Sequence record: PZ445517.1
From: a phage
Length of the DNA: 64,000 bases
Strand: one strand, 5' to 3'
The notes beneath the pieces were generated by a model. That model worked only from the letters and a program-made list of their open reading frames with translations. It searched no databases and was not told where the DNA came from. Position numbers and translations under genes: made by a program. The stretch's first letter is position 1. Each line of letters opens with the position of its first letter. Shown one piece after another: positions 18,753-54,513 of this stretch.

Positions 18753-19640
18753 TTAAGATTTAAGTAAATCAACAATTTTAATTAATTTTTCACGCTCAGA
18801 TTTAGCTTTACTACTCAGTCCAGATAGTCTGAAAATTTCATCATCATATTGCTGAATAGAAATATTCAGCTCTTCAATCTGCTTATTAAAATAATCAATT
18901 TGTTCAGAATGTTTTTCGTTACTACGAACTGGTACAGGTTTTGTAGGCAATTTAGTTGAACTGGATTCATCCGGGCGATAAATTAAAATACAACTTGAAC
19001 CAATAGGGCATTTTGCACCAGATGAATATTCTAATGTTCCGGCTTCTTTTAAAACTTCAAAAGCTAAACAGAGATGATGACCCATATTGACATAATCTGT
19101 AGAGCGAGCTCTGATGTAATAATCATCTCCGCGAATACTAAATTTAAAGCATTTAAGGTCTTCTGTATTATTGGTCTTAAAAATCATTTGTTTATCTAGA
19201 CCTTTAGCTAATCGAGCGCCTAATGCTAATAATCGTCGTTGATTTTCCCACAAATCCGCAATCATTTGATCAAATGATAATTTCGGCATTAGTCGACCAT
19301 AAAGGTCGTATCCTTTATTATAATTGCGAAGGATTTCACTCGCATTAATACGAGACAATGCTCCAATTTTATTAAGGGCTTTCATGATGCGATTAGATAA
19401 ACCCATTCCAGACCCGTTTGTTCGTTGTAAATGTTTATCTAATCCAAACCCAATATCAACTTTAAATTTATCTAAAATTTCAGCATGAACATCTCTGTCA
19501 ATAACATTCAAATCCAAAGTTGGGTTAAATCTATGAAAAAATTTATCTGGCTCTCCACGACGAAGTACAGTCCATTCATTCAATTTTTTATTAACTAAAG
19601 ATTTAATTACTGCATTGACATTATTAATTACGACTGACAT
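18753..19640 (-). CDS. hypothetical protein, paralog family member D (C-terminal coiled coil)
   Basis: track start is TTG; trimmed to ATG at 19638-19640 with GAGGA SD. Confidence 0.55.
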   Translation of the reverse strand: MSVVINNVNAVIKSLVNKKLNEWTVLRRGEPDKFFHRFNPTLDLNVIDRDVHAEILDKFKVDIGFGLDKHLQRTNGSGMGLSNRIMKALNKIGALSRINASEILRNYNKGYDLYGRLMPKLSFDQMIADLWENQRRLLALGARLAKGLDKQMIFKTNNTEDLKCFKFSIRGDDYYIRARSTDYVNMGHHLCLAFEVLKEAGTLEYSSGAKCPIGSSCILIYRPDESSSTKLPTKPVPVRSNEKHSEQIDYFNKQIEELNISIQQYDDEIFRLSGLSSKAKSEREKLIKIVDLLKS

Positions 19641-19694
19641 ATTTTCCTCACTCAATTTCAATTTTACTAAATACGCAGAATATGATGGAAAAGA

Positions 19695-20057
19695 CTATAT
19701 AAGCACCACACACACAGATTGAACTAATACCATTCCAAAGAACCAAACAATATTATCAAACAATGTCTGTTTTACGTCGAAAGGACGTAAACTTACAGTA
19801 ATATTATCGCCTTTTTCTATTGATGAATACATCTCTGGGGAAATATATTCGCTAAATCTATAACCGTCATTGAGTTCATATACAGCAATAAACGATAAAC
19901 TAGATCCCTTTCCTTGAGTTCCTGTAAGGGTATTAACTACAGTAACATCATAATCTTTATAATGCATATAATCATTAATTGCGTAATAACCATATGCAAT
20001 TACTATACATAAACAACATATCAATAAATTCAATCTTTTAATTATCAACTGTTTCAT
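19695..20057 (-). CDS. membrane-anchored or secreted protein (120 aa)
   Basis: N-terminal hydrophobic segment LICCLCIVIAYGYYAI, second at C-terminus. Confidence 0.5.
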   Translation of the reverse strand: MKQLIIKRLNLLICCLCIVIAYGYYAINDYMHYKDYDVTVVNTLTGTQGKGSSLSFIAVYELNDGYRFSEYISPEMYSSIEKGDNITVSLRPFDVKQTLFDNIVWFFGMVLVQSVCVVLI

Positions 20058-20112
20058 AATAATCTCAGTTAAAAGGGCTTAGAACCATTATACCATCCTT
20101 GGTATAAAGCGG

Positions 20113-20640
20113 TTATGCGAGTACCGTCTTTAACCGTTCTTCAAACTTCCGAAGAGTATTCTGGCGTTCAGCTCTTTGCTTTTTGTAAGTTTCAATACGC
20201 TCTGAAATGAGAGTGTATCGTTCATTTACTGATTCTTTCATAAAATCAGGAATTTCACGAGAAGATTTAATCTCGTCAAATTTATCAATAACAGCTTGCT
20301 CTTCAGCAATTAAGTTATCATACATCAAAATATCTTTCTTGATGAACTCAATATCTTCTTGAGTTACACGAGATAATTTAGATGCTTTATCCTTTTTGTA
20401 CTGTTCATTAGTATCACGAGACCAGTGTAATGTACGATTTTTATTCGTATTTTTGTAAATTTCTACAATACCGATCTCATCAATAATAACGATCCAATTC
20501 CAACGAGATTTGTAAATTTGTCCTCCATCAACCGTGATTTCACCTCCGATTGAGATGTCATTAAAGAACTTGCTTTGTGCTTCAGATTTAAATTTACCAT
20601 CATTGTAGTTTACCAAGTTGAAAATATCTTTAGCATTCAT
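20113..20640 (-). CDS. hypothetical protein (175 aa)
   Basis: trimmed to ATG at 20638-20640 (MNAKDIFNLVNY) with GGAGG SD; track extension is promoter translation. Confidence 0.55.
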   Translation of the reverse strand: MNAKDIFNLVNYNDGKFKSEAQSKFFNDISIGGEITVDGGQIYKSRWNWIVIIDEIGIVEIYKNTNKNRTLHWSRDTNEQYKKDKASKLSRVTQEDIEFIKKDILMYDNLIAEEQAVIDKFDEIKSSREIPDFMKESVNERYTLISERIETYKKQRAERQNTLRKFEERLKTVLA

Positions 20641-20664
20641 TTTCTGTTCCTCCGTAGTTGATAG

Positions 20665-20700
20665 TTGTATAGTACCACAGAGGAACGGTCTTGTAAACAA
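20665..20700 (-). promoter_or_regulatory. T4-type early promoter
   Basis: minus strand GTTTACA - 17 nt - TACTAT; 21-bp core shared with promoters at 22105, 25676 and 36935. Confidence 0.55.
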
Positions 20701-21015
20701 CTAAAAGAAACTTCTTTCACAATTTTTTCCACTGAACCACGCGCTCACTGCTTTCTTAGTCTCAGGAGCAGTGTTATCCATAAACCATTCAAAGGCAGCC
20801 TTTTTATGATTCTGGAGAGCTTCTCGGGCTTTAATCTGCTCACGGTCTATTAACACTAACATATGAGCCTTTCTTGTCACCAAGGGCTTCTTATGATTCT
20901 TGGAGTATTCCCAGTCATTTGTCCAACGCATTGTCGTTGCGAACTGAAATACTGCTTCTTTAATTTTAATTTCGTAAATTTCACGAGCCTTTGAGTATAA
21001 CATCATTACCTCCAT
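20701..21015 (-). CDS. hypothetical protein (104 aa)
   Basis: track ORF. Confidence 0.5.
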   Translation of the reverse strand: MEVMMLYSKAREIYEIKIKEAVFQFATTMRWTNDWEYSKNHKKPLVTRKAHMLVLIDREQIKAREALQNHKKAAFEWFMDNTAPETKKAVSAWFSGKNCERSFF

Positions 21016-21104
21016 TTACCAGTTTAATTCTAGTCATCTTTTTGATGGCAGTCCATATAATCTATTTCTGAACTGCCTTTTTGTCATAGAAGGCCTCTTA
21101 TGAA

Positions 21105-22073
21105 TTATTTCAGAAGAGTAACCTCAGCAATTTCTTCCCAACCATTTTTGTCGGTCATAATAAAGTCAGCAAGATAAAGAGCAGTACGCAGTGAAACATT
21201 GCGTAAACGATTAACATTGACTTTCATCCATGATAATGCTTTATAAGTTTCTTCATCAGAAAGACCGCGCTTTTGCATCATGTCAGTTGAAAGAATAACA
21301 TCTTCAACCCTGACCATAATTTCTTCATTAGTGTGAACACCCAAATCCAAATAAACCGAGCGGGACACTAATGCTTGTAAGTGTGGGGCAAGTTTAGTAC
21401 CACGGTCTAATTCGCGGTCAATGTCAACGTTTGTGATAAAAACAATCGTTCCTTTAAATTCAAACTCACGCTCAATGCCTTTTTCTTCTAAGTAAGAAGA
21501 TGCAGTGCTCCAGCAGACTTTACGGGTCTCTCCAGTGTCCAGAGCAGCTTTCAGAAGATTAAGAATGTCCATATCAGAGAAAACATCCACATCATCAATC
21601 AAAAGGACAGAATTCTCTTCACGATTATTCCAAAGCTGCTCATAAAGACCAATACCAGAGATTTTACCATTAATGCTTTTATATTCAATGTATCCATTAT
21701 CATTTGCTTTATTTAAAGCTTTATCTAAAGAATACGTTTTACCAATACCTGCTGCGCCAGAGATAATTAATGAACGAATATTTCCATTAATAATACCATT
21801 CGTCATCATTCCCATAACATTAAATCTTTTATTAATGCGGGTTTTCATATCTTCATATGATTCTTTAACTTCTTCAACTTTTACACCATCATATGAAATA
21901 TCTGATTTGTAAACCCAAACACCACGACGTTTACCGTCAATTTCAACAAAAACTTTACCATCTCCTTGTGCATCTACCGGAGCATTATCTGGGAACCATT
22001 CGCCTAAGAGCTCAAAAGTTCCAGAGATTTCTTTACCGAAGTAGATACCCTTATTGATAGTTACAGTTTTCAT
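21105..22073 (-). CDS. P-loop NTPase
   Basis: Walker A SGAAGIGKTYS and Walker B-like LLIDDVD; trimmed to ATG with GGAG SD. Confidence 0.6.
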   Translation of the reverse strand: MKTVTINKGIYFGKEISGTFELLGEWFPDNAPVDAQGDGKVFVEIDGKRRGVWVYKSDISYDGVKVEEVKESYEDMKTRINKRFNVMGMMTNGIINGNIRSLIISGAAGIGKTYSLDKALNKANDNGYIEYKSINGKISGIGLYEQLWNNREENSVLLIDDVDVFSDMDILNLLKAALDTGETRKVCWSTASSYLEEKGIEREFEFKGTIVFITNVDIDRELDRGTKLAPHLQALVSRSVYLDLGVHTNEEIMVRVEDVILSTDMMQKRGLSDEETYKALSWMKVNVNRLRNVSLRTALYLADFIMTDKNGWEEIAEVTLLK

Positions 22074-22104
22074 TTTATTCTCCAAATCTGTATCAGTTGA
22101 TAGT

Positions 22105-22140
22105 TGTATAGTACCATAAAGCTTTATGCTTGTAAACAGT
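22105..22140 (-). promoter_or_regulatory. T4-type early promoter
   Basis: minus strand GTTTACA - 17 nt - TACTAT. Confidence 0.55.
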
Positions 22141-22165
22141 TTTGTGAAAAAATTTTGAAATAAAA

Positions 22166-22187
22166 AAGGGAGCCCGAAGGCTCCCTA
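22166..22187 (-). terminator. intrinsic terminator (GGGAGCC-UUCG-GGCUCCC + U-run)
   Basis: plus gggagcccgaaggctccc directly after the stop of ORF 22188-23201; U-rich tail on minus strand. Confidence 0.55.
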
Positions 22188-23201
22188 TCATTTATAATAA
22201 CTTCGGTGGTTTTCAAGATAAACCCTCTCAAGGAAGTCATCCCAGAAACCCATGTCTACTTTTTGCTGCATACCGTTTTTAGAAGCTTCAATGGATGCTG
22301 CTTCTACTTGATCGACAACATCTTCCAAAAACTCTTGAACCGTTTTAAATGGATGTTTACCCAACTTCACGTCGAGAATAAATGGAGCATCTTGGAGTGG
22401 ATAAACCAAGTCACCAGTTTTGTAAATTTCCAATAGTTGGAGCCCGCCACGGCAAGCATGACTTAGAGCTTTCCAATCAATGCCTTCATTCGCTTCAGCT
22501 TTACGAGCGCGTTCACCATATTCAGCATCAAGTTTATTCAAAGACTGCTTAAGCTCAATAAGAGAAAGCGTTGTCTGATATTTACGACCCAACACAGTAT
22601 AGAACGTTTGCGGGCCTGTTTTCTCATGATTATGGAATACCCATTCGCAGAATTCGTTTTCTGGAAGACGGTGTTTAATATCTGCAATTTTAGTACGACG
22701 TTGTCCTTGTGTTCCATCTTCTCGGTAATCAACCCACTGATCGGGGATTTGATTAACTACTTTCAATACATCACGCAATGCGGCCAAACGAGAACCCTTA
22801 ACACCATATTTAGAAGCTTGCTTGCGGACATATCCTAAATAGGATTTCATGTTAGTCGTATAAAAACGAGAACGATTGTCTTGGATAAATTTCCACACAT
22901 CAGGTAAATCAGATTTAACCACTAGTTCAGGTGGAGTGTGAAGCATATCCAATGCTACAGTTTCACCATCTGCTGCTAATTTAAAGAAATACTTAAGACT
23001 GTATAGTTCATGGTCAATATCATCTTTAGTGTTTTTAGATGATGTGTTGTTAGTGTTTTTACTCATATGCTCTTTAACATTTCCGATAAGAATATCGCGA
23101 GCAGGAGGAACAAAGATTTCTTTAAAATCCACATCAGATTCTGGAGTAGAAGTTCCATAAAGATGACTACCAAAATAGCTTTTCATTACTGTTTTCATCA
23201 T
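22188..23201 (-). CDS. nucleotidyltransferase-fold protein (Pol-beta-like NTase motif)
   Basis: GSHLYGTSTPESDVDF matches the GS...D.D NTase signature; 337 aa; ATG verified. Confidence 0.6.
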   Translation of the reverse strand: MMKTVMKSYFGSHLYGTSTPESDVDFKEIFVPPARDILIGNVKEHMSKNTNNTSSKNTKDDIDHELYSLKYFFKLAADGETVALDMLHTPPELVVKSDLPDVWKFIQDNRSRFYTTNMKSYLGYVRKQASKYGVKGSRLAALRDVLKVVNQIPDQWVDYREDGTQGQRRTKIADIKHRLPENEFCEWVFHNHEKTGPQTFYTVLGRKYQTTLSLIELKQSLNKLDAEYGERARKAEANEGIDWKALSHACRGGLQLLEIYKTGDLVYPLQDAPFILDVKLGKHPFKTVQEFLEDVVDQVEAASIEASKNGMQQKVDMGFWDDFLERVYLENHRSYYK

Positions 23202-23659
23202 TCAGCCTTATATTCAATAACAGGACATACTTTAGCTTTACGAGCTTTTAAAAATTCGACGATAATAGACTTCTTGGGTTGAATAGGAGGTAAACCTTTA
23301 TACGCCCTATCAATATTTTCTACATGTAAAGCATAATCCTTTTTCCATTTATAATCTTTATATTTTTCATGCAGTTGTGCAGGAATAACAAATGAACCAA
23401 TAATAAGTAAAACAAGCAAAATGGCAAGTATAAATGCTGATGGAATAAGAGTCCATAAACTACTAAAAATAAGCCAACGTTGTAAACTTTCTGCGCAGAT
23501 AATAGTTAGACCTGCGAGTATAGTACATCCAAAAACAGAAACGAAGAATGTAGGAATGGCAATAGACCAAAAATATGCACACAGTGTCTTAGGTCGTTTC
23601 CATTCATCATTAAACATTTTGAATAATTTATAATGCCAAGAGCTTTCATTAATAATCAT
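23198..23659 (-). CDS. integral membrane protein (153 aa)
   Basis: several hydrophobic helices; ATG verified. Confidence 0.5.
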   Translation of the reverse strand: MIINESSWHYKLFKMFNDEWKRPKTLCAYFWSIAIPTFFVSVFGCTILAGLTIICAESLQRWLIFSSLWTLIPSAFILAILLVLLIIGSFVIPAQLHEKYKDYKWKKDYALHVENIDRAYKGLPPIQPKKSIIVEFLKARKAKVCPVIEYKAE

Positions 23660-23661
23660 AA

Positions 23662-24183
23662 TTATCCTTTCATTGAAGGTGTAACAGTTGTTAAATACTT
23701 AATCATAGCTTCAGCTTCTGATTTTGATAATGAAATTTCTCCATTGTTTTGACGAATAGAAATAAAATCAGGGTGACGGTCACCACCAGCTTTCAAAACA
23801 CACATATAGGTATCAGTTTCATCTTCAATATTTGAAATGATTGAAGCAGTTCCGCATGAATGCGGTTTTTGATAAATCAATACAGCTTTTCTTCCGCCAT
23901 TTGACTGTTCATAAACTTTTAATACATCAAACAAATCACTTCTTTTATCAATAGCTAAAATGTTATTTTCATCTTCAATGTTAAATCCTTCGGATACTTC
24001 ATAAAGTGTCACCCATAAATCGTCAATATCAATAACAGCGTTCACTTTTCCATGACTTTCAAGAGCATGACAAATTTTCTTGATTTCGTCATAACTCATT
24101 TTAATAATATCATCTCCTTGAATAAGGAAGATGTCATTTTTAAATTCAACACGAATTAAACCGCTTCCACTTGAAATAAACAT
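23662..24183 (-). CDS. hypothetical protein (173 aa), paralog of 24190-24735
   Basis: C-terminus EAEAMIKYLTTVTPSMKG resembles EAIALKTYLDSVIPTMISK in neighbour. Confidence 0.5.
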   Translation of the reverse strand: MFISSGSGLIRVEFKNDIFLIQGDDIIKMSYDEIKKICHALESHGKVNAVIDIDDLWVTLYEVSEGFNIEDENNILAIDKRSDLFDVLKVYEQSNGGRKAVLIYQKPHSCGTASIISNIEDETDTYMCVLKAGGDRHPDFISIRQNNGEISLSKSEAEAMIKYLTTVTPSMKG

Positions 24184-24189
24184 ATTTCC

Positions 24190-24735
24190 TCACTTTGAAA
24201 TCATAGTTGGAATGACAGAATCAAGATAAGTCTTTAGCGCAATAGCTTCGTCTTTGGTAAATGTAACAATATGTGATCGAAAATCGTCAATTTGGCGAAT
24301 AGTTAAGACATCTCCCTCTTCATAACATTTTGATACATTTAAAAGAGTTTCATCATTCTGATTGCAAGCGTTAGTAATAATAGCATTGCAATTTTTGAGC
24401 CATTTTAAACTATGTTTTCTTTCATTAGAATAATAAAAATATTTAATCTTATCTATAAAACTATCCCAATGGATAACTGATAAGCATATTGACTCGCTTT
24501 CAATATTAAATCCTGGGCATGAAGAATAAAAATGAATTTTATGCTCATCATTAATGCTTACAATTTTATCAGTATAAGGATTTTCAATTTTGGTTAAATG
24601 AATGATTTCACTAGGCGTAAAATACAGCATATCGTCTTCTTGTGTCAAACGATACATATTATTTACTTTTTCTATAGCCAATTCACCAAAAAGTGAACTA
24701 ACTTCTAATACTAATCGTTTCGCCGCTACCGTCAT
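24190..24735 (-). CDS. hypothetical protein (181 aa), paralog of 23662-24183
   Basis: shared C-terminal motif with neighbour; ATG verified. Confidence 0.5.
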   Translation of the reverse strand: MTVAAKRLVLEVSSLFGELAIEKVNNMYRLTQEDDMLYFTPSEIIHLTKIENPYTDKIVSINDEHKIHFYSSCPGFNIESESICLSVIHWDSFIDKIKYFYYSNERKHSLKWLKNCNAIITNACNQNDETLLNVSKCYEEGDVLTIRQIDDFRSHIVTFTKDEAIALKTYLDSVIPTMISK

Positions 24736-24865
24736 TACATACTCCTCTGAATCATATCAATAATGTTGTTCACCAGATTATAAGTAAACATTGGGTAATT
24801 ATATTGAATCACCACATACACAACAAACAAAACTTTCATTCTCTTCTCCTTGGCAGTTGACAAGA

Positions 24866-24900
24866 TTACTATACCATAACCTTGCCAACTTGTAAACCAT
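24866..24900 (-). promoter_or_regulatory. T4-type early promoter
   Basis: minus strand GTTTACA - 17 nt - TATAGT. Confidence 0.55.
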
Positions 24901-25062
24901 TAAATGACGTTTTCGATAAAATTCTGAAGCTTTGTATGAGCATCAACCATGATTTTCATTTCTTCCTTTGCGAAAGCTGTACCTCTTTCACGAGAAGAAC
25001 ATTCATAGTCAGAAACTGCATTAGCATATTCTTCAATTAGCTTCATTAAAAACATCTGCTTT

Positions 25063-25257
25063 TCAGTTTTCATTATTCCACCTAATCATTTCAAGATATT
25101 GAACTAACTTAGCTTTGGATTTATCCAAATCCTTTTTAGCTGCTTCTATACCGTCGTATGAATATCCTTCACAATGCTCAACTGCTAATTGATATGAATC
25201 TATTTCAATATCACGTGCTAATTTAATGATTTTTTCAAACTGTTCGCGTGTTAGCAT
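25063..25257 (-). CDS. small helical protein (64 aa)
   Basis: track ORF; same small-protein family as 25260-25463, 27274-27462, 27459-27644. Confidence 0.4.
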   Translation of the reverse strand: MLTREQFEKIIKLARDIEIDSYQLAVEHCEGYSYDGIEAAKKDLDKSKAKLVQYLEMIRWNNEN

Positions 25258-25259
25258 AC

Positions 25260-25463
25260 TTAAACTCTCGTATTATGATCGATAATTTCATCAAGAAACA
25301 TATCTAACGCTTCTACAGCATTATTAACTTTATCTTCAAGTTCTTCAATACTTTTATTTGCAATGCCTGACGAAAACCAAGCAAAGTCACTAAGTTCCTC
25401 ATCTGCTTTACGAATTAAAGCTACCAATTCCTTAATTTTATCCGCTTGTTCGATACTAATCAT
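25260..25463 (-). CDS. small helical protein
   Basis: trimmed to ATG at 25461-25463 ([13 protein letters not shown]) overlapping the upstream stop. Confidence 0.4.
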   Translation of the reverse strand: MISIEQADKIKELVALIRKADEELSDFAWFSSGIANKSIEELEDKVNNAVEALDMFLDEIIDHNTRV

Positions 25464-25651
25464 TATTCCACCACATATGAAAGAGAGAATATTGCACACG
25501 CCATGTGAGTTGCAACTTCATCACACATATTATAACGTTTCTTAAGAAATTCTACAAGTTCTTCACTAGTAACTTCATCCATGTCGACGAAAAAATCACC
25601 ATTAATGATGACGTAGATATTTCCTTCTTGATTAAGTGCTTCAATTTTCAT
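25463..25651 (-). CDS. hypothetical protein (62 aa)
   Basis: trimmed to ATG at 25649-25651 ([13 protein letters not shown]); track extension is promoter translation. Confidence 0.45.
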
Positions 25652-25675
25652 GATGTTCTCCTCTTTATCCGATAG

Positions 25676-25712
25676 TTGTATAGTACCACAGCTCAAACGG
25701 AAAGTAAACCGG
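25676..25712 (-). promoter_or_regulatory. T4-type early promoter
   Basis: minus strand GTTTACT - 17 nt - TACTAT. Confidence 0.55.
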
Positions 25713-25722
25713 TAAAATGAAA

Positions 25723-25744
25723 AAAGTCTCCCGAAGGAGACTAA
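25723..25744 (-). terminator. intrinsic terminator (UCUCC-UUCG-GGAGA + U-run)
   Basis: plus agtctcccgaaggagact after the stop of ORF 25747-26133. Confidence 0.5.
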
Positions 25745-25746
25745 TG

Positions 25747-26133
25747 TTATTCGAGGGAAAGAAGATACTTACTCTGGTAAAACATTCCAGTAATATCATC
25801 TATCGTGCTTTGGATGGCTGGAGGCATTTCTTTATAAATGCTGTTAGATTGGTCTAGTATGTGATCAATCATTTTAATTGTGTCGGTAGGAAGTTTACTG
25901 GCATCTGGAATTGAAGGTGTGTATTTTCTACCAGAATACCCCAAATATTGCTCACCAAATTTATCAATCAAATCTGGCAACTCGGAGAAAATAAAATCGT
26001 ATGCTTTGTGTCTAGCATAACTTTTAGTTTCAAAATGTGCAGAATGAAAATAAGCTTGTGCAGCCATTAATAAACCTAAGTATTCATCTGCCTTTGAAGG
26101 TTTTCCACTTTGTGAAAAGTCGCTGAATTTCAT
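25747..26133 (-). CDS. hypothetical protein (rI.-1 position)
   Basis: 128 aa; immediately downstream of rI; ATG verified. Confidence 0.55.
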
Positions 26134-26423
26134 TCAGTCTCCAATTTAATGTTCATAATTCTAGCGTATGATTGTGCCATCTCCGCGCCTCGCTCTATAC
26201 ATTCAAAATCAGAAGAGCACGGGTCATTTTTATAGGTCGTTCTCATAAAACTATAGAATTGTTCAGACGATTCTACGCTTTTATTTTCAAAAAGCATATA
26301 AACGTGCCTAATACCAGATTCCATAAATTTATCAAAATGAGGATCGACATTCGCTTCAATCGGTGGAGATAAAACAAATGACAATCCTAGCATGGCAAAT
26401 AGTGCCGTTGCTTTTAAGGCCAT
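26130..26423 (-). CDS. rI: RI lysis-inhibition regulator (periplasmic antiholin)
   Basis: 97 aa; signal-anchor N-terminus; near-identical to my recall of T4 RI. Confidence 0.93.
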   Translation of the reverse strand: MALKATALFAMLGLSFVLSPPIEANVDPHFDKFMESGIRHVYMLFENKSVESSEQFYSFMRTTYKNDPCSSDFECIERGAEMAQSYARIMNIKLETE

Positions 26424-26435
26424 AAAGGCCTCCTA

Positions 26436-26648
26436 TCATTTTTGTCCTGTATTTACTTTATGCCGATGCACGGCCTTAACTTTATCAAGGTATTTTTCAA
26501 AATTTCGCAATCTAGTATAGTCTGCCGGAGATTGGTTGAGTGATACTTCTCGACGCAAAGCTGAAATGATATTTCCAACTTCCCTACGAATTTCATCTAA
26601 TTGAAGCACAGTAAGATTGCGAAGTTGCTTTTCAGTTAATTGTAGCAT
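26436..26648 (-). CDS. hypothetical protein (70 aa)
   Basis: track ORF; ATG verified. Confidence 0.5.
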
Positions 26649-26690
26649 ATATACCCCTTTAGTTAGATAAACCTATTTATAACTTTTGCA

Positions 26691-27272
26691 CTAACCGAGC
26701 TTTTTAGTTAATTCATTCCAATGTTTTCTACACAAAGAAACATAAATTTCATCACCAATACAGATTTGATTACCTTCTTTAACTGGTGATCCATCTTCCA
26801 TTAATCGAGCTGTCATAATCGCTTTTTTACCACAATGACAAACTGCCTTTAGTTCAATAAGTTTATCTGCAATCGCTAAAAGTTCTTTAGAACCTTCAAA
26901 TAATTTTCCAGCGAAATCAGTCCTTAGCCCATAAGCCATAACAGGAACATTATATGTATCAACAATTCGGCTCAATTGATGCACCTGTTCAGTTTTTAAA
27001 AACTGAGCTTCATCTACAAATACGCAATGAATATCTTTTTGTGCTTCAGCCCATTTATAGAACTCGAAAATATCCATATCATCTGTAATAATATTCGCTT
27101 CCTGCTTAATTCCAATGCGAGAAACGACTTCACAGACAGAATCGCGAGTATCAATAGCAGGCTTAAGAACTAATACACTCATTCCACGTTCTTTATAATT
27201 ATGTGCAGCAGTCAAAAGAGAAGCAGATTTTCCAGCATTCATTGCTGCATAAGTAAAAATTAAACTCGCCAT
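26691..27272 (-). CDS. tk: thymidine kinase
   Basis: 193 aa; Walker A AMNAGKSASLL; C-terminal zinc cysteines; ATG verified. Confidence 0.95.
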   Translation of the reverse strand: MASLIFTYAAMNAGKSASLLTAAHNYKERGMSVLVLKPAIDTRDSVCEVVSRIGIKQEANIITDDMDIFEFYKWAEAQKDIHCVFVDEAQFLKTEQVHQLSRIVDTYNVPVMAYGLRTDFAGKLFEGSKELLAIADKLIELKAVCHCGKKAIMTARLMEDGSPVKEGNQICIGDEIYVSLCRKHWNELTKKLG

Positions 27273-30028: not shown

Positions 30029-30054
30029 GTTATTCTCCTCTTAACTGATAGAAA

Positions 30055-30088
30055 AATTATACCACAGTCAAGAGGAAAAGTAAACAGT
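30055..30088 (-). promoter_or_regulatory. T4-type early promoter upstream of regB
   Basis: minus strand GTTTACT - 17 nt - gTATAAT. Confidence 0.6.
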
Positions 30089-30366
30089 TATTCTTTAAAT
30101 CTAATCAATTTATTCATAGACTTTGAAACTTCTGCACGGACCTCATGTAGGTTTTTAAGTTGTTCAAGACGTTGCTCATAGTAAGCAATTTCATCTTCTT
30201 CGAGACAGTCCTGTGAATCTTCTTTAAGATAACGTGCATAGTCCTGGAAAGCTTTACGGACTACTTCCTGGAAGTCATCAAGACTTTGAATTTTCTTAGG
30301 AGCGGCAGATACACGACGAGGTGCAGTATAATACTCATAACCAAACCCTGCACTTAATTGAGCCAT
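30088..30366 (-). CDS. hypothetical protein
   Basis: track ORF begins with GTG; trimmed to ATG ([13 protein letters not shown]) overlapping the upstream stop (TAATG). Confidence 0.45.
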
Positions 30367-36630: not shown

Positions 36631-36894
36631 TTATTTCATATTATTGAAATATTCTTCTGCGATTTCGTCGTTATCATGGTAAACTTTAGAAGACAGTTTA
36701 ACATAACCTTCAGCAGTGAACATATTAATCACAACCTTTACAGTATACCACTGACCATCTTCATTACCCATTACTGCGTAAGTTTCAAACATCGGATGAT
36801 CAGGACCGATAACTTTAATATCATTCACTGTACGACCAAAATCTTCTGAAACACATTTCATAAAGAAGTTGAACAGTTCGCCGTAATTATCCAT
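36631..36894 (-). CDS. hypothetical protein (88 aa)
   Basis: trimmed to ATG at 36892-36894 (MDNYGELFNFF) with GGAG SD. Confidence 0.5.
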   Translation of the reverse strand: MDNYGELFNFFMKCVSEDFGRTVNDIKVIGPDHPMFETYAVMGNEDGQWYTVKVVINMFTAEGYVKLSSKVYHDNDEIAEEYFNNMK

Positions 36895-36934
36895 TTCATT
36901 CTCCAAGTTGTTTTTCTGTATCAGTAGTTGATAG

Positions 36935-36970
36935 TTGTATAGTACCATGGAAGAATAGGGATGTAAACAG
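36935..36970 (-). promoter_or_regulatory. T4-type early promoter
   Basis: minus strand GTTTACA - 17 nt - TACTAT. Confidence 0.55.
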
Positions 36971-37102
36971 TTTTGTGAAAAATTTTTTAAAAAGTTTTGG
37001 GGAATTCTAGGGCAGGGAGGGCAATTAAAGGATAGGATAATATATTATAAAGGATAGAAACTAAATGATGCCTAGAGAGGCCCGGAAAGGCCTAAATACC
37101 AA

Positions 37103-37130
37103 AAAGCCCCGACCAAAAGGTTGGGGCTAA
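37103..37130 (-). terminator. intrinsic terminator-like hairpin
   Basis: minus-strand GCCCCAACC-UUUU-GGUCGGGGC followed by UUUUUGG, just after the stop at 37136. Confidence 0.5.
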
Positions 37131-37135
37131 GAATG

Positions 37136-37610
37136 TTATTTGATTTGTTTAGCAGACCAAATGCGGTCTTTAATAATTTTTTGGATGTCTTCAACATACT
37201 CAAGAGAGTGAGCATGTGGGTTATCTTTGAAACTATAAGCACGAGCTAGCTTTTGGCCTTCAGTTTTGATTACTAAAAGCTCTTTAAGGATAGCTTCATA
37301 TTTGGAGATAATTCCTTTAACAATATTTTTTTTCTTGCGTAGCTTTAGGATCTGCTTTAGGAGCAGGTTTACCTGAAGCCTTTGCAAAAGCAGCGCCAGT
37401 AGCAACTAAACTTTTCCAGGCCATACTAACAGCATTCCCCGTAAATCCTTCTGCTTTCATATCACGAGCAAATTGGAATCGTGATTCATCGGAAGCATCT
37501 TTATAGGAATATTTACCCGCGGCAATGGCAGCTTTTGCAACAGCTTGAATTTCAGTGCTAGATGCTTCATTTAACACCGCTTCATTTAAAAATTGAGCAT
37601 ATGATTTCAT
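37136..37610 (-). CDS. CTS-bearing internal-protein-like gene split by a frameshift at an A8 run
   Basis: ATG ORF 37317-37610 starts MKSYAQFLNEA; continuing frame 37136-37405 has no ATG and begins at TTG; the frames switch at the A8 run 37326-37333. Confidence 0.5.
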
Positions 37611-37658
37611 CTTATTTCCTGTTTTAATTCGTGGTTTTAATATACTTATTTATACTAA

Positions 37659-37686
37659 AAAGCCCCAACCTTTCGGCTGGGGCTAA
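37659..37686 (-). terminator. GNRA-loop hairpin, sequence-related to the hairpin at 37103-37130
   Basis: minus-strand GCCCCAGCC-GAAA-GGUUGGGGC; shares the agcccca...ggggct arms with the downstream hairpin. Confidence 0.4.
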
Positions 37687-37734
37687 GCCTTGCGGCAACC
37701 TTGTCGGGGTTCCACCTGCTAAGGCAAGTGTTTG

Positions 37735-37827
37735 TACGAAACGCCGGGATTCGAACCCGGTTATTAAGCAGTTGACGCTACTCAATATTTTTAAAAGGCC
37801 ATATCTCGACCATATCCGAACGTTCCG
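37735..37827 (-). ncRNA. tRNA-like element (possible stable RNA or degenerate tRNA)
   Basis: canonical T-arm CCGGG-TTCGAAT-CCCGG and a 7-bp acceptor pairing (CGGAACG/CGTTTCG with one G-U), but ~93 nt long with no canonical anticodon arm. Confidence 0.35.
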
Positions 37828-38000
37828 TCAAAAACGCTACTCGGCTTATGGCAAAGATATTTCCTCGAATCGATAATTCGGTGCGCCGTTTCTGCTGTGA
37901 TATAAGGGGGCATTAGCAGATCGTAAAGATTTGTTAATGCCAGTCCTTAAACAGGGAACATCAGTCCGACGACTTGCCGGTAGCGACCCGGCTTCTTGTC

Positions 38001-38076
38001 TGGTCGAGGCAGTAGGGATCGAACCTACGACCCAGGACTTAGAAGGTCCTTGCTCTTCCTTCTGAGCTATGCCTCG
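38001..38076 (-). tRNA. tRNA-Arg (anticodon UCU)
   Basis: manual cloverleaf: acceptor CGAGGCA/TGCCTCG, D-stem GCTC/GAGC, anticodon loop CT-TCT-AA, T-loop TTCGATC, encoded CCA. Confidence 0.85.
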
Positions 38077-40637: not shown

Positions 40638-40823
40638 TTATTCACCTTTAGAAATTTTATCCATAACAATAGCAATTAAACCAATTAAAAATGCTACTAC
40701 AAGTGAAAACACATTTTCTGCTGTAGTTAATAATCCGCATATAAATCCAACAAACATTGAAAAACTAAAAGCGGAAGCAGAAATTGCAATAGCAACATTT
40801 CGAATTAATTCACAACGTTTCAT
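40638..40823 (-). CDS. small membrane protein (61 aa)
   Basis: ATG verified with GAGGAG SD; two hydrophobic segments. Confidence 0.5.
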   Translation of the reverse strand: MKRCELIRNVAIAISASAFSFSMFVGFICGLLTTAENVFSLVVAFLIGLIAIVMDKISKGE

Positions 40824-40849
40824 TTTATTCTCCTCAGTAGTTGATAGGG

Positions 40850-40884
40850 TAATAATATCACACTACTACCCTACTGTAAACAAT
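40850..40884 (-). promoter_or_regulatory. T4-type early promoter
   Basis: minus strand GTTTACA - 17 nt - TATTAT. Confidence 0.55.
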
Positions 40885-41109
40885 TTATTCAACACCAGCG
40901 GCTTTCAAAAGTTTTTTAAGATTGGCAACACCTTGAGCAGAAAATGTGACCTTGCCACCTTTTTCACTGATAGAACCAACCAATTTAGCAAGTTTATCAT
41001 TAGGAATTTTTTTAAAATCAGCCAATGTTCCATCAAAGGTTTTTGAAACAAAAGGCAGTTCATCTTCATGTCTTTTAGCTTCTGCAATAAATTCTTGATA
41101 TGTTTTCAT
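40885..41109 (-). CDS. ipI: internal head protein IPI-like (CTS-bearing)
   Basis: ATG at 41107-41109 gives MKTYQEFIAEAKRH...; longer track ORF is upstream read-through. Confidence 0.7.
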   Translation of the reverse strand: MKTYQEFIAEAKRHEDELPFVSKTFDGTLADFKKIPNDKLAKLVGSISEKGGKVTFSAQGVANLKKLLKAAGVE

Positions 41110-41143
41110 TTTAGTTTCCATTTGGATGTTTTGTTTTGATAGG

Positions 41144-41180
41144 GTAATAGTATCACTACTAAAACCCCGTGTAAACAACT
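41144..41180 (-). promoter_or_regulatory. T4-type early promoter (internal-protein cassette)
   Basis: minus strand GTTTACA - 17 nt - TACTAT; same leader family as 41510 and 41840. Confidence 0.55.
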
Positions 41181-41194
41181 TTGTGAAAAATTTA

Positions 41195-41482
41195 TTACAA
41201 AAGATTTTTAGCAATAATCTTGAGATGTGCCGCAGAAATGTGTTTAGCTTTAAACAACGCAGTTTCTTCAGCAGGAGAGATAACGATTGTAGCACCATCC
41301 TTTTTAGCAGACCACCCATCGCCTAGGTAAACAGTACCTTTGATTTCTTCGCCATCAACCAGACTAATCATTGGTTTACCTTCTCGTCCTTTATTTGCTT
41401 TAATAACTTCAGAAGTAAGAGTAGCTTCGGTAATAGTAGAAACCGGGGTAGTTGTAGAAGTAAATTCTTTGAAAGTTTTCAT
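41195..41482 (-). CDS. CTS-bearing internal-protein-like gene (95 aa)
   Basis: starts MKTFKEF (CTS variant); ATG verified; ~70 nt upstream identical to the next cassette. Confidence 0.6.
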   Translation of the reverse strand: MKTFKEFTSTTTPVSTITEATLTSEVIKANKGREGKPMISLVDGEEIKGTVYLGDGWSAKKDGATIVISPAEETALFKAKHISAAHLKIIAKNLL

Positions 41483-41509
41483 TTTATTTTCCTAATTAAT
41501 TTTGATGAG

Positions 41510-41545
41510 GTAATAGTATCACTACTAAAACCCTATGTAAACAAC
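41510..41545 (-). promoter_or_regulatory. T4-type early promoter (internal-protein cassette)
   Basis: minus strand GTTTACA - 17 nt - TACTAT. Confidence 0.55.
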
Positions 41546-41554
41546 TTTGTGAAA

Positions 41555-41812
41555 TTATTTTAAATCTTCTAATCGTTTCTTCATCTTAGAACCGTTCTTA
41601 GCGATTTCGCCTGCATCAGAGCATAATGCTAAAAGCGCTTTAACTTTAGTTTGGTCTCCTTTAAAAGATGAAGGATCAACAGCAGCAGCAAGTTCTTTAA
41701 TACGAGAGAAAAGACGCTCAGCTTCAGCTAAAGCCATTCCAAGCTTTACTTCCATACCGCGGGAAGATTCAGTAATAGTAGTTTTTGTAGCAAACTCTTT
41801 GAAAGTTTTCAT
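41555..41812 (-). CDS. CTS-bearing internal-protein-like gene (85 aa)
   Basis: starts MKTFKEF; ATG verified; upstream region duplicates that of 41195-41482. Confidence 0.6.
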   Translation of the reverse strand: MKTFKEFATKTTITESSRGMEVKLGMALAEAERLFSRIKELAAAVDPSSFKGDQTKVKALLALCSDAGEIAKNGSKMKKRLEDLK

Positions 41813-41839
41813 TTTATTTTCCTAATTAATTTTGATGAG

Positions 41840-41875
41840 GTAATAGTATCACTACCTCATCAGTATGTAAACAAC
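41840..41875 (-). promoter_or_regulatory. T4-type early promoter with 10-bp inverted repeat flanking the -10
   Basis: minus strand GTTTACA - 17 nt - TACTAT; TGATGAGGTA...TACCTCATCA inverted repeat spans the -10. Confidence 0.5.
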
Positions 41876-41884
41876 TTTGTGAAA

Positions 41885-42569
<685 letters not shown>

Positions 42570-53516: not shown

Positions 53517-54513
53517 TTCAAGTGTTATCTATCGTGCGATAGTTACTTCAAAATTTAGAACAGAAAAAATGTTGAATTTTTATAATTCAATTGGAAGTGG
53601 TCCGGATAAAAACACTATCTTTATTACATTTGGAAGATCAGAACCGTGGTCATCAAACGAAAATGAGGTGGGATTTGCCCCACCTTATCCCACCGATTCT
53701 GTATTAGGTGTAACTGACATGTGGACTCATATGATGGGAACCGTGAAGGTTCTTCCATCTATGCTTGATGCAGTTATTCCTCGTCGAGATTGGGGAGATA
53801 CTAGATATCCGGATCCATACACATTTAGAATTAACGATATTGTAGTGTGTAACTCAGCTCCTTACAACGCTACCGAATCAGGCGCAGGCTGGTTAGTATA
53901 TCGTTGTTTAGATGTTCCTGATACCGGAATGTGCTCAATCGAGTCTTTAACTAATAAGGATGAATGCCTTAAGCTAGGTGGAAAATGGACTCCTTCTGTT
54001 AGGTCAATGACTCCTCCTGAAGGTCGAGGAGACGCGGAAGGAACAATCGAACCTGGAGACGGGTATGTATGGGAATATCTTTTTGAGATTCCGCCTGATG
54101 TATCTATAAACAGATGCACGAATGAATATATCGTGGTTCCTTGGCCTGAGGAATTAAAAGAAGATCCGACTAGATGGGGGTATGAAGATAACCTCACTTG
54201 GCAGCAAGATGATTTTGGATTAATTTACCGGGTTAAGGCAAATACTATTCGTTTTAAAGCATACTTAGATTCAGTTTATTTTCCTGAAGCTGCATTGCCG
54301 GGAAATAAAGGATTTAGACAAATATCGATAATCACGAATCCTCTTGAAGCTAAAGTTCATCCAAATGACCCAAACGTTAAAGCTGAAAAGGATTACTATG
54401 ATCCGGAAGATTTAATGAGGCATTCGGGCGAAATGATTTATATGGAAAATAGGCCACCTATTATTATGGCAATGGACCAAACAGAAGAAATCAATATTCT
54501 GTTTACATTTTAA
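53509..54513 (+). CDS. 8: gp8 baseplate wedge protein
   Basis: 334 aa; size and order as in T4. Confidence 0.95.
   Translation: MNDSSVIYRAIVTSKFRTEKMLNFYNSIGSGPDKNTIFITFGRSEPWSSNENEVGFAPPYPTDSVLGVTDMWTHMMGTVKVLPSMLDAVIPRRDWGDTRYPDPYTFRINDIVVCNSAPYNATESGAGWLVYRCLDVPDTGMCSIESLTNKDECLKLGGKWTPSVRSMTPPEGRGDAEGTIEPGDGYVWEYLFEIPPDVSINRCTNEYIVVPWPEELKEDPTRWGYEDNLTWQQDDFGLIYRVKANTIRFKAYLDSVYFPEAALPGNKGFRQISIITNPLEAKVHPNDPNVKAEKDYYDPEDLMRHSGEMIYMENRPPIIMAMDQTEEINILFTF

Follow-up and report, generated by a model that had tools for sequence, protein, structure and literature searches.

We analysed a phage DNA stretch of 64,000 nucleotides (nt; sequence record PZ445517.1; the whole stretch is called the window here), in which a short promoter-like sequence recurs at four sites on the minus strand. 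These repeats very probably belong to one ten-copy subfamily of T4-type early promoters, which would serve as portable homology for genetic exchange as in the promoter early stem-loop (PeSL) model. An earlier note, made from the sequence alone, had reported an identical core at the four sites, had read them as promoters and had likened them to PeSL cassettes acting as recombination hotspots. Positions 20000-26000 of the window are 100% identical to Escherichia phage T4_ev240 (LR597657.1, Tequatrovirus; hereafter ev240), and the window corresponds to positions 30291-94290 of this record, a whole-genome assembly. The region is also ~95-97% identical to some 460 further T4-like genomes.

The 22-mer AGTTGATAGTTGTATAGTACCA was found exactly at positions 20656-20677, 22095-22116 and 36926-36947, and with 19 of 22 matching positions at 25667-25688. 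The recurrence of the core was thereby confirmed (three exact copies and one of 19/22), with the earlier coordinates lying within 1-3 nt of ours. Since the three mismatches at 25667 are all confined to the plus-strand 5' end, the stretch common to all four sites is the 18-mer GATAGTTGTATAGTACCA. No match to the 22-mer was observed in 100 shuffles of the sequence, and the chance expectation is 0. On the minus strand, each of the four sites reads G, then TTTAC(A/T)-N17-TGGTACTAT, which contains the -10 hexamer TACTAT preceded by a TGn extended -10. The 17-nt distance to GTTTAC(A/T) that had been claimed holds when the -35 hexamer is taken as TTTACW. In each copy the -10 is followed by ACAACTATC(AACT), a Shine-Dalgarno (SD) sequence and an ATG 25-45 nt downstream; at every site the SD, which is GGAGG, GGAG or GAGGAG, stands 6-8 nt upstream of this ATG. 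If the -10 is numbered -12..-7, the 22-mer spans -15 to +7 and comprises the TGn, the -10 hexamer, the discriminator ACAACT and the start-site motif ATCAACT. An A/T-rich UP-like tract, AAAATTTTTTCACAAAAC, can be clearly recognised in modules 2 and 4 of the following list. In module 3 the corresponding region is T-rich, being the tail of a terminator, and in module 1 it is weaker and lies inside the coding end of nrdC.9.

20638..20720, minus strand: module 1, predicted early promoter of the nrdC.8 orthologue, from its sequence and the T4 orthologue at T4 53922; -35 TTTACA 20697..20692, -10 TACTAT 20674..20669, predicted +1 A 20662, SD GGAGG 20653..20649, ATG 20640
22073..22160, minus strand: module 2, predicted early promoter of the nrdC.10 orthologue, with the UP-like tract; -35 22136..22131, -10 22113..22108, predicted +1 22101, ATG 22073
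25651..25718, minus strand: module 3, predicted early promoter of the mobD.5 orthologue, its core diverging after ACAACTATC; -35 TTTACT 25708..25703, -10 25685..25680, predicted +1 25673, ATG 25651
36894..36995, minus strand: module 4, predicted early promoter of the e.8 orthologue, with a UP-like tract; -35 36967..36962, -10 36944..36939, predicted +1 36932, ATG 36894

A search for the core across the whole ev240 genome, as the earlier note had suggested, returned ten copies, all on the same strand and co-directional with the genes, and T4 carries the core at the same ten loci. Seven of the ev240 copies match the 22-mer exactly (upstream of the imm.1, nrdC.8, nrdC.10, e.8, motA, ndd.5 and ndd.6 orthologues), and the remaining three, at motB, mobD.5 and frd.3, have three mismatches each. 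In T4, no mismatch was found at imm.1, nrdC.8, nrdC.10, e.8, motA and ndd.6, three were found at motB and frd.3, and four at mobD.5 and ndd.5. An eleventh T4 match with three mismatches, at 65393, is non-orthologous. The T4 sites orthologous to modules 1 to 4 lie at 53922, 55363, 58759 and 70675, upstream of nrdC.8, nrdC.10, mobD.5 and e.8, respectively; the cores of ev240 and T4 are identical (22/22) at nrdC.8, nrdC.10 and e.8 and one base apart at mobD.5. When a 66-nt module was used as query, 787 phage records were matched, 557 of them with a full-length copy, and Tequatrovirus genomes carried it in 7-10 places each. Outside Tequatrovirus this query gave partial matches only.

The early promoters of T4 combine UP, -35, TGn and -10 elements with additional consensus regions and form a very strong class (Hinton 2010, PMC2988021). 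In ev240 we predicted 34 early promoters, all on the early-gene strand, and their information profile showed a conserved GTTTAC -35, TGn and -10. A weaker T-ATCAACT consensus at -1..+7 runs through all 34. Within this class the four sites stand out as its most uniform subfamily, and the other 24 predicted early promoters differ from this subfamily in -10 and discriminator. Compared with the T4 early promoters, the positions are orthologous and the UP-like tract, the GTTTAC -35, the 17-nt spacer and the TGn/-10 are all held in common; nothing of substance differs apart from a few substitutions and a spacer or leader variant at frd.3, imm.1, ndd.5 and ndd.6. The reading as promoters is upheld by the GTTTAC -35, the 17-nt spacing, the TGn/TACTAT -10, the conserved start region and the orthology to T4 early-promoter regions. 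Promoter activity, strength and start sites are predictions from the consensus and from this orthology. The cassettes are annotated nowhere in LR597657.1, the GenBank records of T4 hold no promoter features at the nrdC.8, nrdC.10, mobD.5 and e.8 sites, and our literature search returned no T4 transcription-start-site data covering these promoters. An Rfam scan of the whole window at the gathering threshold gave eight tRNAs only, with no match at the modules.

Evidence for exchange between the copies came from an alignment of the ten copies each of ev240 and T4 with 27 stretches from eight IMG/VR contigs, which were collected with an 18-mer scan; the IMG/VR set is enough to show mosaicism and too small for statistics. 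The aligned promoters are built of mosaic segments, namely the UP tract, the -35, one of several spacer types, the identical core, one of several leader types and the gene. In five genomes, the frd.3 promoter has five different spacers, which fall into three types (nrdC.10-type in T4, motA-type in ev240 and e.8/imm.1-type in three IMG/VR genomes), while its leader and gene are unchanged. Depending on the phage, one of three genes stands behind the promoter at the ndd.6 site, and the start region at ndd.5 is of the ipI type in T4 and of the core type in ev240. These mosaic patterns of spacer, leader and gene require crossovers in or beside the core. In addition, degenerate cassettes were seen in the IMG/VR contigs L046 (~9036) and L033 (~2124), in which a terminator runs straight into the spacer and -10 of a promoter of the core family. 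These lack the UP tract and the -35 and resemble the 'half PeSLs' described for phage PST.

The genes around modules 1 to 3 are on the minus strand and comprise, by T4 annotation, nrdC.8, nrdC.9, nrdC.10 and nrdC.11, followed by the block of mobD.1-mobD.5 and rI.-1. The flanking gene content of relatives, which the earlier note had proposed to compare, varies at module 2, and no variation was seen at modules 1 and 3 in the relatives sampled, phage Shinka excepted. Among six relatives mapped by BLAST, 22084-22131 was the only promoter-linked hotspot in 19300-26700, and in four of the six the core of module 2 is separated from the nrdC.10 ATG by 275, 458-493 or 1148 nt of extra open reading frames (ORFs). 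In a spread sample of 55 relatives, one to three extra ORFs were present at the nrdC.10/nrdC.11 junction in 27, with breakpoints in the core or the -35. The inserts fall into at least six size classes (+262, +430, +481, +621-625, +741 and +1101 nt). One of the insert ORFs is annotated as an ADP-ribosylase. The insert of KAW1E185 at module 2 consists of one ORF and a second promoter, and CTATCAA is found at both of its junctions.

Phage Shinka (MZ502379.1) lacks 4.27 kb corresponding to window 21404-25677, that is, most of nrdC.10 through mobD.5. The right end of this deletion lies inside the -10 of module 3, directly after TGGTACTA (L048 1601-1612), and the join shows a 9-12-nt microhomology (TAGTACCAC) to a site within nrdC.10. 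A core-to-core recombination of modules 2 and 3 was considered for this deletion and rejected, as the junction is a microhomology with the interior of nrdC.10.

Around module 4, upstream of the e.8 orthologue at 36926, a cassette downstream of e.8 is replaced in relatives and a 520-nt insert lies 130-165 nt upstream. This insert (window 37131-37651), which T4 and T2 lack, holds a 294-nt ORF. Direct repeats that resemble terminators (GGGGCTTTTT) flank it at 37098-37131 and 37648-37687, so that here the stem-loop, and not the promoter, marks the breakpoints. The adjoining stretch 37652-38046 is 89% identical to a T4 stretch with most of rnaC, all of rnaD and part of a tRNA-Arg; it is unannotated in LR597657.1, and no Rfam family scored above the gathering threshold there.

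Other changes in the window were noted besides those at the four modules. The ipI locus (40818-41900), in which the site near 41850 stands just before 57B, contains three tandem small genes with start-to-start distances of 366 and 330 nt in place of the single ipI of T4. Each of the three has its own near-identical early promoter and leader, and the breakpoints of the ev240/T4 indels lie inside the promoters. Between the mobD.1 and mobD.2 orthologues (24722-24730), three of the six mapped relatives carry a 452-nt insertion, and the ev240 junction has no promoter cassette. At 23210-24164, T4 and RB5 have mobD where ev240 has two ORFs, a replacement linked to homing endonucleases, and RB5 has an extra homing-endonuclease gene (HEG) between nrdC.9 and nrdC.10 at 21090-21123. 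Both of these HEG-linked changes are independent of promoter cassettes.

41812..41895, minus strand: predicted early promoter of the last gene of the ipI-locus array, same sequence as the T4 ipI promoter at T4 73915; -35 41871..41866, -10 41848..41843, predicted start at ~41836
24839..24900, minus strand: extra predicted early promoter within the interval of the earlier note, upstream of the mobD.2 orthologue; TTTACA-N17-TATAGT, first base of the -10 at 24873

Several results weigh against the cassettes acting as PeSL-like homology at every site. No gene-content variation was observed at module 1 in 31 sampled relatives or at module 3 in 39, Shinka excepted, and the module 4 core itself was not a breakpoint in the relatives compared around it, where the indels fall outside the core. 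Module 4 moreover lacks a terminator within 70 nt, and no hairpin there is significant (z -1.1). Over the whole genome, 7 of the 46 ev240/T4 indels have a breakpoint at most 70 nt away from a predicted early promoter, where a uniform null gives ~2.6; this null is crude and confounded because indels prefer gene boundaries, and about 16 of the 46 are homing-endonuclease events. The identity of the discriminator and of +1..+7 could stem from functional selection, gene conversion or both. Being a 'hotspot' is a property of some modules, not all. The claim of recombination hotspots is directly supported by the mosaic swaps between dispersed copies and by the polymorphic nrdC.10/nrdC.11 junction, but this support is uneven, with modules 1 and 3 static in the relatives sampled and the indels near module 4 outside its core.

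A first rival explanation would take the sites as convergent, strongly selected sigma-70 promoters, whose identity reflects optimal binding of the polymerase and which have no special role in recombination. It would account for the exact coincidence of the core with the polymerase-contacted region from -15 to +7, for the presence of a weaker form of the start-site consensus in all 34 early promoters and for the static state of modules 1 and 3. However, the 24 other early promoters depart from the core in -10 and discriminator and yet belong to a very strong class (PMC2988021); identity is therefore not needed for function. Moreover, non-consensus spacers are common to distant loci and differ between phages at one and the same locus, as at frd.3, and exchange is therefore required. 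Different genes behind the same promoter and the polymorphic junction at module 2 (27/55 relatives) also speak against convergence, which we consider improbable.

The stem-loops associated with the modules are of two kinds, upstream terminators and hairpins that span the promoter. Upstream of two of the modules, at 22186..22167 and 25742..25725 (minus strand), there are terminator-like hairpins with a UUCG loop and a T-run.

22161..22186, minus strand: predicted intrinsic terminator after nrdC.11, AGGGAGCC-UUCG-GGCUCCCU then U6; folding of 22186..22161 gave -17.4 kcal/mol (z -3.7)
25719..25742, minus strand: predicted intrinsic terminator after rI.-1, AGUCUCC-UUCG-GGAGACU then U6; folding of 25742..25719 gave -10.8 kcal/mol (z -3.1)

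Both places combine the features of a rho-independent terminator, with a GC-rich hairpin, a U-run directly after it and the end of a gene, and their sequences suggest that transcription would terminate at both. The U-run of the nrdC.11 terminator merges into the UP tract of module 2. Among six terminators upstream of early promoters, four have UUCG loops. Module 1, whose -35 directly adjoins the stop codon of nrdC.9 (20701-20703), leaves no space for a terminator. The UUCG terminators that had been described before the modules are seen at modules 2 and 3 and missing from modules 1 and 4. C(UUCG)G hairpins and intrinsic terminators of the T4 intercistronic regions are classic, and such hairpins were reportedly first described in T4, by Tuerk and colleagues in 1988. 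The GC stem, the UUCG loop and the U-run are the same here, and we found no difference from them.

At the promoter of the ipI-locus array, a perfect 10-bp inverted repeat (TGATGAGGTA at 41862..41853 and TACCTCATCA at 41842..41833) lies across the -10 (41848..41843). The promoter had been placed at 41840-41875 and its repeat taken as a candidate operator; we confirmed the repeat itself, at 41833-41862. As RNA, the repeat is predicted to extend to a 13-bp stem of -17.4 kcal/mol (z -4.7), which does not include the SD. A comparable hairpin was found at module 1:

20646..20686, minus strand: predicted promoter-spanning hairpin of module 1, 13-bp stem, -19.4 kcal/mol (z -3.3), duplex -17.0

Its 5' arm (20686..20674) lies in the spacer between -35 and -10, and its 3' arm (20658..20646) covers the SD GGAGG. 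The promoter at 24839..24900 likewise has a strong promoter-spanning inverted repeat (-16.9 kcal/mol), and a further example of a spanning hairpin in the window lies at 30040-30090.

We then scored how well the spacer of each promoter pairs with the leader of that promoter and with those of the others. Pairing with the own leader was stronger, with means of -11.0 vs -7.0 kcal/mol in ev240 (p = 2e-4) and -10.9 vs -6.8 in T4 (p = 2.5e-4). Pairs of -10 kcal/mol or better were formed by 16 of 34 own combinations in ev240 (47%) and 13 of 34 in T4 (38%), against 15% of the cross combinations. Half of the strong stems have at least 3 nt of the SD paired within their 3' arm, and the stems that span the promoter differ in sequence from promoter to promoter. 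Almost all substitutions between the T4 and ev240 stems are one-sided, with pairing kept by G.U on the sense strand; pairing was kept or broken in 10 and 1 cases, respectively, in one direction and in 8 and 0 in the other. The promoter at 71147 of the ev240 record (ipI locus) was left out of these counts, as four of its five changes break pairing, which suggests to us an exchanged spacer. Between T4 and ev240, no stem showed a two-sided compensatory change, and the support from this comparison for the hairpins is weak. The idea that upstream terminators and spanning hairpins replace each other found a trend in the expected direction (means -7.0 vs -11.8 kcal/mol), which was not significant (p = 0.07 in ev240 and 0.11 in T4; not significant by Fisher test).

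These data bear on the reading of the core and the repeats across the -10 (e.g. 41833-41862) as operators for a DNA-binding protein of phage or host, such as an early shut-off factor. The shut-off mechanism of T4 early promoters is unknown (PMC2988021), the core includes the -10 and +1, a position at which a repressor would be expected to act, and the 41833-41862 repeat is perfect. On the other hand, repeats of this kind occur at 13-16 of the 34 early promoters with unrelated sequences; there is therefore no common site. Their right arms often reach the SD, which is an RNA feature, and the one-sided differences between T4 and ev240 preserve pairing, through G.U, in the sense strand alone. The core is no palindrome, and no candidate binding protein was identified. 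An operator at 41833-41862 was accordingly rejected, with no palindromic sequence common to the promoters and with substitutions that preserve G.U pairs, and we regard operators as very unlikely for the core and the repeats in general. The evidence instead points to RNA structures of read-through transcripts rather than protein-binding sites. A third explanation, in which the repeats are the ends or targets of a small mobile element resembling a miniature inverted-repeat transposable element, or a homing-endonuclease recognition site, draws on the short dispersed repeats beside variable ORFs and on the HEGs common in the region (mobD in T4; the RB5 HEG at 21090-21123), but can be dismissed almost entirely, as all copies share one orientation co-directional with the genes, have neither terminal inverted repeats nor target-site duplications and carry the full promoter geometry with SD and ATG, and as the HEG insertions map to 21090-21123 and 23210-24164 and not to the cores.

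The 5' arm of the spanning hairpins lies before the local start site, so that they would form only in RNA coming from upstream. The leaders of the T4 genes e, soc, 49 and I-TevI contain hairpins that sequester the SD and include a promoter (Uzan & Miller 2010, PMC3014915). The module 1 hairpin would follow the same logic, with the 5' arm upstream of an internal start and the SD hidden only in read-through RNA. It differs in that the internal promoter is late in e, soc, 49 and I-TevI and early in module 1, where the hiding of the SD is a prediction. We tentatively raise the possibility, to which we give rather less than an even chance, that spanning hairpins, in which nearly half of the early promoters of T4-type phages would be embedded, are a general device by which a gene is translated from the transcript of its own early promoter but not from read-through RNA. 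If this were true, many small early genes would be confined to the first minutes of infection, the principle of e, soc, 49 and I-TevI would extend from late to early promoters, and the stem-loop ('SL') of many PeSLs would provide translational, not transcriptional, insulation.

Returning to the reading of the repeats as an exchangeable early-promoter subfamily, we propose that host sigma-70 RNA polymerase would bind the promoters immediately after infection through the UP-like tract, GTTTAC(A/T), TGn and TACTAT. The A of CT-A-TCAACT, ~7 nt downstream of the -10, would be the first transcribed base, and a short leader with SD and ATG would lead into the next small early gene. Where an intergenic gap lies upstream (modules 2 and 3), the UUCG terminator would stop incoming transcription, its U-run merging into the UP tract. 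Where there is no gap (module 1), the hairpin between spacer and leader may hide the SD in read-through RNA, and the gene would be translated mainly from its own promoter. Since the cassettes of ~60-100 bp are near-identical, dispersed and in one orientation, they would act as portable homology, and the T4 recombination machinery would probably swap promoter halves and whole ORF cassettes between the copies.

PeSLs and their mini-circles were defined by Arbiol et al. (2010, PMC2839356), and their consensus in PST and T4 is TTTACW-N17-TAYWAT (Comeau et al. 2014, PMC4122927). Our modules fit this consensus, and the suggested match to PeSL cassettes is borne out in this respect. Like PeSLs, they join an early promoter to an SD/ATG, in three of the four modules together with a stem-loop, and are repeated in hyperplastic regions; indels, ORF swaps and degenerate halves accompany some of the copies. 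A stem-loop at or overlapping the promoter was found in module 2 (z -3.7), module 3 (z -3.1) and, as a spanning hairpin, module 1 (z -3.3). Unlike PeSLs, only two of the four modules have an upstream stem-loop, one has none that is significant, and two show no gene-content variation in the sampled relatives. The position of the module 1 hairpin has been described for PeSL subclasses of RB49 and phi1, with a stem-loop 'between -35 and -10 or overlapping the -10' (PMC2839356), and has not been stressed for PST and T4. PeSL-mediated exchange in the ndd.4/ndd.5 region, which contains two members of the core subfamily, has already been discussed (PMC4122927). The concept of T4 early promoters, UUCG terminators and PeSL shuffling is already published; the mosaic data are a clean illustration of it and no new principle.

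For the biology of T4-like phages, the value of the cassettes lies mainly in annotation, as they mark the transcription units of poorly understood early genes. They also mark sites where accessory ORFs are gained and lost, such as the nrdC.10/nrdC.11 junction, and are useful for comparing therapeutic T4-like phages or for engineering insertion sites.

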